From Candidatus Eremiobacteria bacterium (GTDB lineage Bacteria > Vulcanimicrobiota > Vulcanimicrobiia > Vulcanimicrobiales > Vulcanimicrobiaceae), in assembly GCA_963758295.1 (NCBI GenBank), contig CAVWUU010000004.1:1088001-1152000 (forward strand): a stretch of 64,000 bases of DNA, in the 5' to 3' direction. The translations under genes and the position numbers were made by a program. Below are positions 30,815 to 34,934 of this stretch, in pieces (positions within the stretch are counted from its first letter, which is position 1; each line of letters begins with the position of its first letter). The notes beneath the pieces are model-generated. The model searched no databases. It saw only the letters and a list, made by a program, of their open reading frames with translations, and was not told the DNA's origin.

Positions 30815-32102
30815 GCTCGATATCGTTGCTTTACGTCGCGATCCCGATCGTTTTAGGCACTCCGCCCAACGTCGGGGAATCGACCCGTCTTTTGTCGATG
30901 AAGTTCTGCGTCTCGATACGGAGTACCGCTCGGCGCTAAACGCGGTTGAAACGGCGAAAGCCGAAAAGAACCGGCTCTCGGCAGAAATCGGCAAAGCGCC
31001 GGATAAAGCCGCCGCTGCGCGCGAGTTGAAACCGCAACTCGACGCATTCGCCGCGAAGATCGCCGAACACGAAACGCGCGCAAAAGAGCTGGCGCCGGAT
31101 GCACCCGGATCCCCTCTGCGCGGGCTGCTGGAGAATACGCCGAACGTGCTGGACGATTCGGTCCCCGACGGCAATGATTCCGAGGACAACGTTCAGGTAC
31201 GCGCGTGGGGAGAACCCCGCCGTTTCGATTTCGAGCCGAAACCGCACTGGGAATTGGGCGAAGCGCTCGACATCTTAGATTTCGAGCGCGCGGCCAAACT
31301 TTCGGGTAGCCGTTTCGCGGTCCTGAAAGGGAAAGGCGCGCGCTTGTCGCGTGCAATCGCGCAATTTTTTCTCGACCGCGCCGTCGATCGCGGCTACACG
31401 GAAATCGACCCGCCGTATCTCGTTACGCGCGATACCATGTGGCGCACGGGACAACTTACCAAGTTTTCCGACGCGATGTTCCAAGATCAAGACGCCGATC
31501 TTTTCATGATTCCAACGGCTGAAGTGCCGCTGACCGCGCTGCATGGCGAAGAAATTCTCAGCGCCGCCGAACTGCCGCGGCGATACACGGCGTACTCTCC
31601 GTGTTTTCGTAAAGAAGCCGGCGCGGCCGGAAAAGATACGCGCGGACTCGTGCGCCAGCATCAGTTCGAAAAAGTCGAACTCGTATGGCTCTCGTCGCCC
31701 GAGTCGTCGTTTGACAACTTGGAAACGCTCGCCGGGAATGCCGGGAGTTTACTCGAGGAGTTGGGACTGGCGCATCGCGTGATGCTGCTGTGCGCGGGCG
31801 ACACCGGTTTCAACGCCGCGAAAACTTACGATTTAGAAGTGTGGCTGCCGACGGCGCAAACGTATCGCGAAATCAGTTCCTGTTCCGACTGCACCGACTT
31901 TCAAGCGCGTCGCGCGAACCTGCGATTCCGGCGCGACGCGAAAGCCAAACCGGAGTTCGTGCACACGCTAAACGGCTCGGGGCTCGCGGTGGGGCGAACG
32001 CTCCTCGCAATCATGGAGAATTACCAAGAAGTCGACGGGAGCATTACCGTTCCCCAGGCGCTGCGCCCTTATACCGGCTTCCACCGGATCACTCGGTCTT
32101 AA
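30813..32102 (+). CDS. serS: Serine--tRNA ligase
   Basis: MLDI start, IPTAEVP, CFRKEAGAAG, YDLEVW, EISSCS and HTLNGSG motifs. Confidence 0.98.
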   Translation: MLDIVALRRDPDRFRHSAQRRGIDPSFVDEVLRLDTEYRSALNAVETAKAEKNRLSAEIGKAPDKAAAARELKPQLDAFAAKIAEHETRAKELAPDAPGSPLRGLLENTPNVLDDSVPDGNDSEDNVQVRAWGEPRRFDFEPKPHWELGEALDILDFERAAKLSGSRFAVLKGKGARLSRAIAQFFLDRAVDRGYTEIDPPYLVTRDTMWRTGQLTKFSDAMFQDQDADLFMIPTAEVPLTALHGEEILSAAELPRRYTAYSPCFRKEAGAAGKDTRGLVRQHQFEKVELVWLSSPESSFDNLETLAGNAGSLLEELGLAHRVMLLCAGDTGFNAAKTYDLEVWLPTAQTYREISSCSDCTDFQARRANLRFRRDAKAKPEFVHTLNGSGLAVGRTLLAIMENYQEVDGSITVPQALRPYTGFHRITRS

Positions 32103-32442
32103 GGCGTCCCAACGCGGTGGAAAGCGCGTCGACGGCGTTCGACCGTTCCGGGATCACTTTGCCGGCCGGAAAGAACGCTTCGACGCGAATCACCGTGTGT
32201 GTTTCGTCCACCGGCTCGAACGAACAGCGAATGCGCTCGTTATTGATGAGCCCGAAACCCGCTTCGATCAGCCTGCCGGTCCGGTCGTCAACGTAAACGT
32301 TCGCCCCGAGCGTCCCGTCGATTTCTTTCAGGCATAGCTCGTAGGCGGCGCCGAAGCCGAGCGGAACTTCCACGTTCCGGTGCGGCCGCAGGCCCACGCG
32401 CGACGAGGTTTCCGGACGAAGCCACTTCAGCAAAAACGACAT
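32089..32442 (-). CDS. Hypothetical protein
   Basis: Protein-like ORF starting MSFLLKWLRPE; no recognised motif. Confidence 0.6.
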   Translation of the reverse strand: MSFLLKWLRPETSSRVGLRPHRNVEVPLGFGAAYELCLKEIDGTLGANVYVDDRTGRLIEAGFGLINNERIRCSFEPVDETHTVIRVEAFFPAGKVIPERSNAVDALSTALGRLKTE

Positions 32443-32461
32443 TATTTTAGAATCCACCGTC

Positions 32462-32490
32462 TTGCATCACGAATTCCTTCATGCTATAGT
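32462..32490 (+). promoter_or_regulatory. Sigma70 promoter
   Basis: TTGCAT(32462-32467)-N17-TATAGT(32485-32490), with the extended -10 TG. Confidence 0.85.
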
Positions 32491-32500
32491 CGCCTCTAAC

Positions 32501-32578
32501 ATGTTCGCCCAGCACGCCACCGTTTCGTATTATTACGGCCGCTTCAATCGGAGCCGGCCCGGTGCGCCATTGCCTTAA
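32501..32578 (+). CDS. Attenuator leader peptide MFAQHATVSYYYGRFNRSRPGAPLP
   Basis: 25-codon ORF with tandem TAT TAT TAC at 32528-32536, lying between the promoter and the terminator. Confidence 0.85.
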   Translation: MFAQHATVSYYYGRFNRSRPGAPLP

Positions 32579-32599
32579 GCGAACTCCATCGCCAAATGC

Positions 32600-32633
32600 A
32601 AAAGCCGCCTCGCCGACGCGAGGCGGTTTTTTT
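32600..32633 (+). terminator. Attenuator terminator hairpin
   Basis: AAAA-GCCGCCTCGC-cgac-GCGAGGCGGT-TTTTTT, ending 32 nt before the downstream ATG. Confidence 0.9.
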
Positions 32634-32665
32634 CTTCCCTCAGCTCCAAGAAATCGAGGACTCCA

Positions 32666-33472
32666 ATGCAAAGCGCCCACGCCGTTCAGCCCAGTTCGGA
32701 TCTCGAAGCCTTTAGGCTCGAGGTTGCGCAAACGATCGAAAAGCACCCGATCGTGCGCGAAAACCGCTACACGCGCTGGTTTGCAAACGGAGAAGCGACG
32801 ATCGAACAGCTTCGAGCTTTCACGGTTCAGTTTTCCGTGTTCAGCCATCTCTTCATCGAAGCGCAGCTGCGCAAATGCATTAACGCCGCGAGCATGGAGA
32901 GTTACCGCGCCGGCAAAGAGATTCTCATGAATGAGCTAGGCGTGGTTTTTACGCCGAACGGCAGCATCGAAGGCGGCACGTTCCGATTTCGCGCCGGCCA
33001 CTTTGAATGGCTCGCCGAGTTTGCGGCGACGCTCGGCTTATCGTGGAGCGAGATCGGGAAACGGCGCCACGGCTGGGCGACGACCGTCGGATTCTGCGAC
33101 GCGCTCATGGAGTGGTACGGCTCCGACGACGAGTCCGTCGCGGCCGGCGCATCCTTCGCCATCGAGCACTGGGCCGCAGCCGGATTTTGGAAAGAGCTCA
33201 TAGCCGGCTTGAAACACCTCAAGCACACGCGCATGCCGGACATGCCGCTTGGCTTCTGGACCTGGCACGACGCGCTCGAAGATCAACACGCCGCGCATAC
33301 GGACGATGAATTGGCGGCGGCGTTCGCACGTGAGGACTTTTCCGCCGATCGATTTATCGCCGCCGGGACGGCCATCTTAGACGCCGTCGCGGCTTTCTGG
33401 GACGGCCTTGAGGGTCAGCGCCAGATTTCGCGCACCGTGGTGCTGCGCTCGGCCGCGTCGACGCCGCGATAG
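32666..33472 (+). CDS. Heme-oxygenase-like diiron oxidase/oxygenase (HDO; CADD/PqqC/TenA-like fold), function unknown
   Basis: HP..NRY..F..G N-terminus; ligand-like pattern NELG..GHFEW..AIEHW..FWTWHDALEDQH; GAGGA RBS. Confidence 0.75.
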   Translation: MQSAHAVQPSSDLEAFRLEVAQTIEKHPIVRENRYTRWFANGEATIEQLRAFTVQFSVFSHLFIEAQLRKCINAASMESYRAGKEILMNELGVVFTPNGSIEGGTFRFRAGHFEWLAEFAATLGLSWSEIGKRRHGWATTVGFCDALMEWYGSDDESVAAGASFAIEHWAAAGFWKELIAGLKHLKHTRMPDMPLGFWTWHDALEDQHAAHTDDELAAAFAREDFSADRFIAAGTAILDAVAAFWDGLEGQRQISRTVVLRSAASTPR

Positions 33473-34008
33473 GATTGCATGACGCGATCCATCGCCGGAT
33501 TGGTGACGCCGAACCAAAGATGTTCATTCTTGAAGTGATGCCAGAGGTGGTACTTCTTCATGTACCGGCCCATGGCGGTCTTCGGAACGAACGGCACGTG
33601 CGCAACGTAGTGAACCCACTCGTAAAATGCGAGGCCAAGGAACGTCCCGAAAATCAACGAGAGCGCAATCCCGACGTCGCGTGCGATCGCGAAGTACAAC
33701 GCGAAATACGCGAGCCCGGTCGGAATAACGAACCACCAAGGCAAAAACAGCAGTTCGAGTTTCGGGGGGTCGATGTGATGGTCGTAATGCAGACGATGCT
33801 GCAGCTTGAGAATCCAGTTCGCCTTCGAGGGCCGGGCGTGGAAGAGAAAGCGATGTGTCGAGTACTCCGACGTGAAGAATACGAGCGCCCCGACGAGCGC
33901 AGCGAACGGCGCAAACGGAAAAGCGTGCTCCGCAAAGCTTGCGGCCAGAACTGCGAGCGCGCCGAAAAGCAGCGCGTTGCTGCCATGTCTGAAGAACGCC
34001 GCTATCAC
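33415..34008 (-). CDS. Fatty acid hydroxylase/sterol desaturase family protein
   Basis: His boxes EYSTHRFLFH, HYDHH, EWVHYVAH, YHLWHH and FGVT. Confidence 0.9.
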   Translation of the reverse strand: MIAAFFRHGSNALLFGALAVLAASFAEHAFPFAPFAALVGALVFFTSEYSTHRFLFHARPSKANWILKLQHRLHYDHHIDPPKLELLFLPWWFVIPTGLAYFALYFAIARDVGIALSLIFGTFLGLAFYEWVHYVAHVPFVPKTAMGRYMKKYHLWHHFKNEHLWFGVTNPAMDRVMQSYRGVDAAERSTTVREIWR

Positions 34009-34934
34009 GCCGGCGTCCGGATCAAATCGAGGAGTCCCTGACGGTCTAAGTAGCGGATGTGTCCACGTTCGCGTTTGAGAAGACCGCGAAGCTCGAGCTC
34101 CGCGATCGCGCGTGCGGCAACTTCTTTCACCGTGCCTGCCGCGGCCGCGATTTGCGACTGCGTGAGGTTCGGCAACGGCGCTGTTGCCGGCGCAAGACCC
34201 TTCTCGGCAACGGCGTATTGGACAAGCACGCCGGCAATTCTAGAGAGGATCGGCTGCGTCGATTGCGATGACAGCATTTCGACCAGCAGGCGCGCGCGCT
34301 GCGCACCAATCCGAGCCAGGGAGACGAAGACGTCCGGATGCATTGCTGCCGCGTTCCGAACGGCTTCGTACGGGATGCGAAAGAAACGAGCCGTTTTGCT
34401 GAGCACGATAGTGCGCCCAAGCGTCCGCCCGTTATCGAAAAACTCCGTTTCACCGAAGATCTCACCCGCGGCGATTTCGTAGAAAATCCGATTGCGCGAG
34501 GCGGATCCGGATGCGAGTGCGAGCGTTCCTTCGACGACCATGCCGATCGCGGGCGATTCGGAATTTTCCGGCGCGATCGTATTTCCACGGCGGACCGTGT
34601 GCACCGTCGCCGCGTTCGCCAGCGCGTGCAACGCCAGCTCCGGAAGGTCGCAGAAGACCGGCGACCGGCCTAGCAACGCGGATTGCGAGGTATCGACGCC
34701 CCCTTTCGGGCGCCGCAGAGTTACGTGCCACTCTTCTGCGCCGACGCGATGCGGTGCGAGCAACAACTCACCCTGGCGGCTCTGCTGCAAGCTGGCAGTC
34801 AGTCCACGGGGTTCATTCTCGGTTACGACAGTGAGCATTTCACCGTCGGTGAGGCGATCGAACGCCTCGAAGACGGCGCTCGGGCGATCCCAAACCGGCA
34901 GTCCGCGCAAATCGATACGAGCCATTTGAAGCAT
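34005..34934 (-). CDS. Crp/Fnr regulator with an N-terminal DUF2249-like domain
   Basis: IDLRGLP..RPSAVFEAFDRL..GE..P N-domain, GEIFGE cNMP-like domain, HTH LTQSQIAAAAGTVKEVAARAI. Confidence 0.8.
   Translation of the reverse strand: MLQMARIDLRGLPVWDRPSAVFEAFDRLTDGEMLTVVTENEPRGLTASLQQSRQGELLLAPHRVGAEEWHVTLRRPKGGVDTSQSALLGRSPVFCDLPELALHALANAATVHTVRRGNTIAPENSESPAIGMVVEGTLALASGSASRNRIFYEIAAGEIFGETEFFDNGRTLGRTIVLSKTARFFRIPYEAVRNAAAMHPDVFVSLARIGAQRARLLVEMLSSQSTQPILSRIAGVLVQYAVAEKGLAPATAPLPNLTQSQIAAAAGTVKEVAARAIAELELRGLLKRERGHIRYLDRQGLLDLIRTPA

Follow-up and report, generated by a model that had tools for sequence, protein, structure and literature searches.

What does an enzyme do if its gene appears to be switched on when tyrosine runs short? 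The question is raised by a locus in a 64,000-nucleotide stretch of Candidatus Eremiobacteria DNA (contig CAVWUU010000004.1 of assembly GCA_963758295.1, positions 1,088,001 to 1,152,000, forward strand), which we call the window and number from its first letter. Here, a leader region with three consecutive Tyr codons precedes a gene for a protein resembling the heme-oxygenase-like diiron (HDO) enzymes. The host genome (G000) is of Eremiobacterota type, comprises six contigs and is 82% complete. The reading that we favor, with a rough probability of 0.55, is that the leader serves as a tyrosine-specific, ribosome-mediated attenuator of transcription for one HDO gene, whose product most likely yields tyrosine or 4-hydroxyphenylpyruvate. 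Its two parts differ in strength. That the Tyr attenuator is real and classical in kind is very probable, and that the HDO enzyme supplies tyrosine, a proposal that rests on regulation and phyletic pattern, is somewhat better than an even bet.

The leader region and its conservation

All elements of the locus lie on the forward strand. A promoter at 32462-32490 consists of a -35 box (TTGCAT, 32462-32467), a 17-nt spacer and the hexamer TATAGT (32485-32490). A TG at 32482-32483 turns the latter into an extended -10 element (TG-C-TATAGT, 32482-32490) as we read the sequence. A consensus promoter scan made no call at this site (0 sites, below threshold), and eight of 12 consensus matches were counted by hand; the pattern TTGC..N17..TGnTAnnnT is nonetheless kept across loci in an alignment of 62 sequences. 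The promoter is followed by a leader open reading frame (ORF) of 25 codons (MFAQHATVSYYYGRFNRSRPGAPLP, 32501-32578; ATG at 32501, TAA at 32576-32578) that contains the putative regulatory codons TAT TAT TAC (32528-32536). Immediately 3′ of these codons is the segment 1:2 hairpin (GGCCGCTTC at 32537-32545 with GGAGCCGGCC at 32550-32559, 32537-32559 overall), as seen in the minimum free energy (MFE) structure. An intrinsic terminator spans 32601-32633, with a stem formed by 32604-32613 and 32618-32626, a CGAC loop, and seven T residues at 32627-32633. The Shine-Dalgarno sequence of the monocistronic HDO gene (GAGGA, 32656-32660) lies 5 nt ahead of its ATG at 32666; the gene (32666-33472) encodes 268 amino acids. 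The earlier note had described the promoter, leader ORF, Tyr run, 1:2 hairpin, terminator and enzyme gene, and each was found where it had been placed.

The leader RNA has an MFE of -57.4 kcal/mol (z -4.98), which none of 200 shuffled sequences equaled. The Tyr run is by itself weak evidence. The 64-kb window has two occurrences of TAYTAYTAY where 0.33 would be expected, and two of 100 shuffled windows also reach two, so that a triplet run in one window is only mildly unusual. For this reason, the case for an attenuator rests on a comparison across loci.

HDO orthologues with 62 to 84% identity were gathered from relatives and from public genome contigs, including seven loci from Obscuribacterales or Melainabacteria. 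Four of the 71 loci are cut by contig ends and one is a partial match, leaving 66 that can be assessed. In 65 of the 66 (63 identified by script, L005 and L042 by eye), the HDO gene is preceded by a terminator and, ahead of that, by a small ORF that contains a Tyr run; every one of the 63 loci that passed the script also has a T-run. The association that the earlier note had proposed to look for in orthologous loci is therefore kept in Eremiobacterota as well as in Obscuribacterales/Melainabacteria, and this conservation lifts the Tyr run, as a sequence feature, beyond chance.

The homologous leader ORFs are 19 to 27 codons long. Among 62 leaders, the longest Tyr run has two, three, four, five or six residues in 1, 16, 28, 12 and 5 cases, respectively, and 20% of the 1493 leader residues are Tyr. 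Representative peptides are MLVLKAVAYYYYGYFDRSRPGGSLQ and MFVTTSAYYYYYYGCFDRSRQGTSLL, together with MTARNAYSYYYYTYSLGVG from Obscuribacterales and MSRSVNSYYYYYYRGPAGGA from Melainabacteria. Residues flanking the run vary freely between leaders. Within the runs, both Tyr codons are used (TAT 165 times, TAC 134 times) and indels come in multiples of three. Because the run changes by TAT/TAC switches and by insertion of whole codons, the leader ORF appears to be read as codons rather than to serve as purely structural RNA. Queuosine or another modification of tRNA-Tyr was considered as the sensed quantity and set aside, given that Tyr codons alone are clustered and other NAY codons are not.

The sole exception among the 66 loci is L007, where a divergent HDO copy (48% identity) resides in a genome with TyrA. 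In the corresponding region of this genome (L007:2150-2480, minus strand, G032), promoter, small ORF and terminator are still present but the Tyr run is gone (MFHTARVTVSLITVLVRGREVAYSL), and the leader looks decayed or retuned. Relatives of the divergent G032 protein merge into the main HDO family and so give no independent clue.

Where a -10-like hexamer was found, it ends 9 to 10 nt 5′ of the leader ATG in 42 of 55 leaders, and no Shine-Dalgarno sequence was found ahead of the leader ORFs in the alignment of leaders. From this spacing we infer that the mRNA is leaderless or nearly so. Genes upstream of the leader differ from locus to locus, which indicates that the leader belongs to the HDO gene. 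No Rfam family reached its gathering score with the leader (the best, DUF3800-I, scored 27.5 bits against 44.2), and there are weak sub-threshold matches to small RNAs. When the host genome was searched with a covariance model built from the leaders, the element itself was the only strong match (135.6 bits). All others scored 32.2 bits or less; one of these is mainly a terminator (C4:1224809) and another is an intergenic terminator on C2.

A related leader precedes the canonical aromatic pathway in HDO-negative relatives, which carry an operon encoding a fusion of PDT (prephenate dehydratase) with DAHP synthase, an AroH-type chorismate mutase, and TyrA. All 11 examined operon starts of this type (PDT-DAHP synthase, AroH/TyrA) carry an ORF of 18 to 27 amino acids rich in Tyr, Phe and Trp, and in 10 of the 11 a T-run lies no more than 140 nt downstream of it; of the 11 starts, one belongs to G033, a genome flagged as unpublished, and another to G036, an HDO-positive genome that has only the fusion gene left. 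Examples are MQVLTSYAYWYYTGGYIRRGLRFTR, MTFSFSYYAYYFWTSAGRAESCLRA and MQHAPVYAYAYYFSRPVGPVGLAFA. These leaders with their terminators (L092:3140-3302, minus strand; L093; L101-L109) share with the HDO leader a -10 box a few bases 5′ of the ATG (about 6 nt in L092), a short ORF and a terminator, and some of them also share an S-R-P-x-G stretch past the aromatic run. They differ in that Tyr, Phe and Trp codons are mixed, whereas the HDO leader clusters Tyr only; Trp is present in eight of the 11 operon leaders but in one of 62 HDO leaders. Furthermore, the HDO-leader covariance model matches the operon leader only weakly (22 bits). From its sequence, the operon leader looks like an undescribed class of aromatic attenuator. 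Taken together, the two types of leader suggest that this phylum attenuates aromatic amino acid synthesis and that the HDO version is tuned to tyrosine alone.

Alternative pairings and a proposed switch

The sequences of the leaders are consistent with two competing structures. In the first, a termination state, a closing helix joins the ORF start to the bases just past the stop codon; the structure also includes a helix around the Tyr region, the 1:2 hairpin and the terminator stem. On an alignment of 61 leaders, 75.5% of cells are paired in this structure as opposed to 32 to 44% when the partners are slid, and 24 of its base pairs change on both sides. Hairpin 1:2 (helix 5) is paired in 79.7% of cells, with five of nine pairs changing on both sides, and the terminator (helix 6) in 90.9%, with seven such pairs. 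The sequence of the terminator stem is nearly invariant across the 61 leaders. This invariance exceeds what a terminator needs, and we therefore read its 5′ arm as having a second partner.

The second structure is a candidate antiterminator at 32555-32615, predicted by folding and by the alignment, in which a 5′ strand at 32555-32582 pairs with 32589-32615. In a fold of the window's nascent RNA in which a ribosome occupies the Tyr codons, this long imperfect helix has a free energy of -24.6 kcal/mol. Its outer pairs (32555-32558, 32561-32564 and 32566-32567) hold 10 of the 12 nucleotides of 32604-32615, namely eight of the 10 nucleotides of the terminator 5′ arm and two loop bases, and the pairs inside them complete the same stem-loop. 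The earlier note had proposed a 2:3 pairing between 32551-32558 and 32604-32611; it had the right segments, but that register is short, and the longer imperfect helix is the better solution. Across the alignment, 71.3% of cells are paired in the antiterminator, compared with 30 to 55% when the partner is slid. Equivalent folds form in leaders from Obscuribacterales (L058, -18.6) and Melainabacteria (L071, -28.2), whose sequences differ. In folds of the nascent RNA, averaged over 37 of 62 leaders (the other 25 have a C between the stem and the T-run and were left out), pairing of the terminator 5′ arm is 0.74 when a ribosome is stalled at the Tyr codons, 0.53 for the ribosome-free RNA and 0.26 once the ribosome sits at the stop codon.

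Some of the folding results count against the antiterminator. In the window, the helix beats shuffled sequences only moderately (z -1.85, with eight of 200 as good). Covariation is thin, with seven pairs changing on both sides and no more than in shuffles, as a result of the segments being so conserved. Once the full terminator is present, 15 of 17 leaders retain it in the constrained MFE structure, which would require antitermination to be under kinetic control, as in classical attenuators.

The logic by which ribosome position would select between the two structures, as we infer it from the sequence, is as follows. Transcription would start a few bases 5′ of the leader AUG, and a ribosome would translate the 25-codon leader. 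If charged tRNA-Tyr is scarce, the ribosome would stall at the Tyr codons (32528-32536) and cover segment 1, leaving segment 2 and the bases after it (32555-32582) to pair with 32589-32615, including the 5′ arm of the terminator, and RNA polymerase would continue into the HDO gene. If tyrosine is plentiful, the ribosome would reach the stop codon (32576-32578) and cover the 5′ strand of the antiterminator; the terminator (32601-32633) would then form and transcription would end. If the leader is not translated, hairpin 1:2 would sequester segment 2, with termination again the expected outcome.

This arrangement has well-known counterparts. The trp, his, pheA, thr and leu attenuators of Escherichia coli each combine an ORF rich in the cognate codons with 1:2, 2:3 and 3:4 hairpins and a U-tailed terminator. 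The HDO leader is like the classical amino acid attenuators in having a short ORF with a codon run, alternative hairpins, and a U-tailed terminator ahead of the gene, and the trp/his/phe-like layout that the earlier note had recognized, comprising leader ORF, Tyr run, terminator and alternative pairing, is kept in two phyla. It differs from them in its Tyr-only run, its apparently leaderless mRNA without a Shine-Dalgarno sequence, its occurrence in Eremiobacterota and Obscuribacterales, and its control of one gene for a noncanonical enzyme rather than of a biosynthetic operon. For other bacteria, a published list includes putative attenuators ahead of tyrA operons (PMC1173090); in the passages covered, the HDO-leader element is not among them.

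The enzyme and the genomes that carry it

The HDO protein belongs to an orphan family that is poorly captured by sequence models. Pfam PF14518 matches it below the family cut-off (24.8 bits against 28.9; E = 2.2e-5), and several close homologues have a precomputed match to the same family. No NCBIfam model matches, a PDB search with the single sequence and with a profile returned nothing meaningful, and the ESM Atlas gave generic TenA/PqqC-like clusters only. The family is large, with 4774 homologues at E <= 1e-3, and some of these are annotated as PqqC by their sources. An AlphaFold model (pLDDT 83.6) adopts a heme-oxygenase-like helical fold, and Foldseek assigned a probability of 1.00 to matches with CADD, PqqC, BesC, HamA, HrmI, UndA and FlcD. 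CADD/CT610 is the nearest structural neighbor (TM 0.64 normalized to the query and 0.77 to 0.78 normalized to the target, with 17 to 18% identity), PqqC comes second, and TenA, BesC, HamA, HrmI, UndA and FlcD follow. The model thus agrees with the fold expected by the earlier note, with CADD at the top of the list and UndA on it.

The E..H..E..H..E..H ligand pattern of the earlier note, which would correspond to a three-His/three-carboxylate dimetal site, was assessed by residue conservation: H61, E65, E85, E90, H112, E114, E167, H201, D202, E205, H208, H211 and E215 are invariant in 30 homologues. Among these, E167 and an H-x3-E-x2-H arrangement (H201, E205 and H208) resemble what we take to be the HDO ligand motif. 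PqqC and TenA have the same fold and no metals. We regard the modeled enzyme as heme-oxygenase-like in fold and probably dimetal. UndA, BesC, HrmI, HamA and FlcD have this fold in common with the window HDO and act in natural-product or hydrocarbon pathways.

Which pathway the window enzyme serves is suggested by the genomes in which its gene occurs. We compared 61 relatives, 401 genomes of the phylum and 81 Obscuribacterales genomes (G024, G033, G059, G268, G354 and G368, which are flagged as unpublished, are inside these counts, and G061 and G184 are one and the same assembly). Among the 61 relatives, PDH_N, the domain by which TyrA was recognized, is absent from all eight genomes with an HDO orthologue, compared with its presence in 40 of the 53 others. 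Across the phylum, the HDO gene is present in 74 of 401 genomes, all within the window's family. There, PDH_N was found in 13 of the 74 HDO-positive genomes versus 156 of 223 HDO-negative ones, and the difference persists inside a single genus (12/38 versus 31/42). CM_1 (AroH) tracks TyrA, with 15 of 74 versus 187 of 223. A similar relationship is seen in Obscuribacterales, where 21 of 81 genomes carry the HDO gene; full-length TyrA is found in none of these 21 and in 31 of the 60 HDO-negative genomes. In another 16 HDO-negative Obscuribacterales, PDH_N matches more weakly, to frames of 454 to 495 amino acids, and the single one examined joins a TyrA-like domain to PDT (455 amino acids, L089:126-1493, minus strand). 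The anticorrelation between HDO and tyrA that the earlier note had suggested looking for is therefore strong but not absolute in both groups.

The window genome itself has chorismate synthase, and no CM_1, CM_2, PDT or PDH_N was found in it, such that the check for tyrA suggested by the earlier note is negative for the PDH_N domain. Biopterin_H, which marks the pterin-dependent Phe hydroxylase, was found in none of the 61 relatives. The HDO gene also has no conserved neighbor among 15 loci compared, and leader plus gene behave as an autonomous traveling unit whose neighbors change. A putative Tyr-responsive switch, carriers that mostly lack TyrA, and this self-contained mobility together lead us to read the HDO enzyme, as the best available interpretation, as a one-step source of tyrosine. 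The claim of the earlier note that the enzyme supplies tyrosine thus gains support, short of proof, from the phyletic pattern, namely the TyrA anticorrelation and the lack of Biopterin_H.

Several aspects of the distribution weigh against this assignment. Thirteen HDO-positive genomes keep AroH and TyrA, and 67 genomes of the family have neither HDO nor PDH_N. In genus g25 of the same family (33 genomes), CM_1 is present in 33/33, PDH_N in 1/33 and HDO in 0/33; these genomes are predicted to make prephenate, yet are without recognizable TyrA or HDO. Ten of the 21 HDO-positive Obscuribacterales show weak partial PDH_N matches in frames of 201 to 281 amino acids, and by length such short TyrA-like frames occur in 10/21 HDO-positive versus 4/60 HDO-negative genomes. 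The two examined, of 253 and 271 amino acids (L087:412-1227, plus strand, and L088:169-930, minus strand, represent these 253- to 271-residue proteins of mostly HDO-positive genomes), are TyrA-like and have prephenate dehydrogenases as their best NCBIfam matches, far below cut-off. In addition, relatedness keeps these genomes from counting as independent samples, many of them are incomplete metagenome-assembled genomes, and the Fisher values overstate significance. HDO-positive genomes often lack PDT as well, and we know of no HDO that hydroxylates the aromatic ring of a free amino acid.

Candidate reactions

The distribution of chorismate mutase and PDT bears most directly on the substrate. 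No recognizable chorismate mutase is present in 59 of the 74 HDO-positive genomes, including that of the window. CM_1, CM_2 and PDT were likewise not found in G002, G062 and G184; CM_1 and CM_2 were not found in G036, which keeps its PDT-fusion gene; and CM_1 and PDT were not found in G166 and G197. Overall, PDT was not found in the window genome or, among 11 further distinct Eremiobacterota genomes with the HDO gene that were searched for it, in eight; in Obscuribacterales it is present in nine of 21 HDO-positive versus 53 of 60 HDO-negative genomes. Because most carriers of the HDO gene are without chorismate mutase, prephenate and arogenate are unlikely substrates, and phenylalanine or phenylpyruvate, either imported or otherwise made, is the most economical choice. 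The frequent lack of PDT means that a Phe hydroxylase would depend on imported phenylalanine. In a separate family of the same class (f3, 19 genomes), PDH_N is present in 15 of 19 genomes and PDT in none of 19, which suggests that f3 has a route to phenylalanine that does not use PDT.

For the reaction itself, we tentatively propose a pterin-independent, O2-dependent 4-hydroxylase of phenylalanine (or phenylpyruvate), likely with a dimetal center, although this specific assignment, which matches the second option of the earlier note for phenylalanine, is considerably less secure than a role in tyrosine supply. The enzyme would be made during tyrosine shortage and would provide tyrosine or 4-hydroxyphenylpyruvate in organisms without chorismate mutase and TyrA, by an O2-dependent para-hydroxylation of phenylalanine or phenylpyruvate. 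Elsewhere, this role is filled by the pterin-dependent phenylalanine hydroxylase (PAH). PhhA (Biopterin_H) would thus be a functional counterpart, forming Tyr from Phe under Tyr limitation, with an unrelated fold and cofactor.

The same attenuator could instead control an O2-dependent oxidative decarboxylase of prephenate or arogenate that directly replaces TyrA, which the earlier note had put forward as its first option. UndA, which performs an oxidative decarboxylation, is an HDO and is among the structural neighbors, and a direct replacement would account for the anticorrelation with TyrA. Moreover, eight of the 11 HDO-positive Obscuribacterales without above-cut-off PDH_N keep PDT, which is the signature expected of a specific TyrA replacement. 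These points are outweighed by the scarcity of chorismate mutase (CM_1 is not found in the 59 genomes counted above, and the searches of individual genomes for CM_2 were equally negative), which leaves no evident source of prephenate, whereas TyrA-positive relatives do have AroH adjoining tyrA. With PDT also mostly not found, this reaction did not hold up as the favored one, and we consider it improbable.

The closest structural neighbor raises a different possibility, in which the HDO enzyme would be a CADD-like p-aminobenzoate (pABA) synthase that consumes a Tyr residue, with the leader peptide perhaps serving as sacrificial donor and the terminator setting an excess of peptide. CADD/CT610 and NePabS, the self-sacrificing pABA synthases of the HDO superfamily, share the all-helical heme-oxygenase-like fold and carry out tyrosine-centered chemistry. 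The HDO-positive genome G184, a complete single contig, has chorismate synthase and FolP; no PF00425 enzyme (TrpE, PabB or MenF), and hence no PabB, was found in it, nor was PDH_N. The window genome, however, encodes a PabB-PabC fusion (Chorismate_bind plus Aminotran_4, with aminodeoxychorismate synthase as best NCBIfam match), on which ground pABA synthesis was rejected as the leading interpretation, and the same second type of PF00425 enzyme is present in five of eight HDO-positive relatives. Despite the similar fold, identity to CADD is only 17 to 18% and there is no sequence match to PDB chains or NCBIfam models. The regulation also points the other way, toward making tyrosine, whereas CADD consumes it; induction of a Tyr-consuming enzyme by Tyr starvation makes no regulatory sense, and the leader architecture is the same as that of the canonical aromatic operon. 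A pABA synthase is therefore very unlikely.

A further reading takes the small ORF as the precursor of a ribosomally synthesized and post-translationally modified peptide, or as a PqqA-like precursor, with tyrosines modified by the HDO enzyme and the hairpin-terminator tuning stoichiometry. We would give it slightly less credence than pABA synthesis. PqqC is the second-best structural neighbor and lends its name to some of the homologues, pqqA is followed by a hairpin, and the ORF is conserved and looks translated. Nevertheless, the number of Tyr residues varies from two to six between freely changing flanks, while nucleotide conservation tracks the two alternative pairings. No other gene for maturation, transport or proteolysis is conserved in the vicinity, and no pqqA, pqqB, pqqD or pqqE was found among the neighbors in the window and 15 loci, the rest of the genome not having been searched for pqq genes. 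Such a peptide would also leave unexplained the TyrA anticorrelation, and an analogous leader precedes the aromatic operon of relatives. A ligand-binding riboswitch or stand-alone small RNA with an incidental ORF is the least probable of all, since, despite a strongly nonrandom structure (z -4.98), a closing helix (helix 1) in which four of six pairs change on both sides, and the weak small-RNA matches in Rfam, 65 of 66 loci retain the ATG, reading frame and Tyr run, the run varies at third positions (TAT/TAC) and by whole codons, and no Rfam family reaches its gathering score.

Other features of the locus are noted here for completeness. The 3′ end of the HDO ORF (33415-33472) overlaps by 58 nt a convergent gene of the FA_hydroxylase family (33415-34008, minus strand); most HDO orthologues stop about 15 residues sooner, and the C-terminal tail in the window may be an unconserved read-on. 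Two genes downstream of the HDO gene is a regulator with DUF2249, cNMP-binding and Crp-HTH domains (34005-34934, minus strand). The same regulator adjoins a 73%-identical HDO orthologue (L016:4340-5296, minus strand), synteny that is limited to close relatives. Divergent from the leader promoter is an ORF of 122 amino acids (32089-32457, minus strand) without a Pfam or NCBIfam match, and similar small proteins are seen upstream in L005 and L007 when six-frame translations are inspected by eye. Stop-interrupted or split HDO copies occur in L009/L011/L013/L014 (G003), L008 (G017) and G335 and are possibly pseudogenes or assembly errors.

In a 2026 review of HDO enzymes, a term search of the text covered found no occurrence of 'prephenate', and the passages containing 'tyrosine', 'phenylalanine' and 'hydroxylation' concern other reactions; the same search found no characterized HDO reported in primary aromatic amino acid supply. 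Literature on Tyr-codon leaders with tyrA, on HDO enzymes in tyrosine biosynthesis, and on tyrosine or auxotrophy in Eremiobacterota was also consulted, subscription journals being outside its scope, and neither the element nor the role was found there.

Regardless of the enzyme, a Tyr-only attenuator and a related Tyr/Phe/Trp attenuator are documented here, both apparently on leaderless mRNAs and both in phyla with almost no experimental genetics. The regulatory signal indicates what the cell lacks when the HDO protein is made, and thereby provides a testable hypothesis for an orphan family of thousands of members. If the proposed function is correct, it would be the first role of the HDO superfamily in primary amino acid metabolism, and would add a new O2-dependent entry to tyrosine beside the TyrA and pterin-dependent PAH routes. 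A single enzyme would then furnish tyrosine on demand to bacteria without chorismate mutase and TyrA, and the scoring of Eremiobacterota and Obscuribacterales as Tyr auxotrophs in metabolic models would be wrong.

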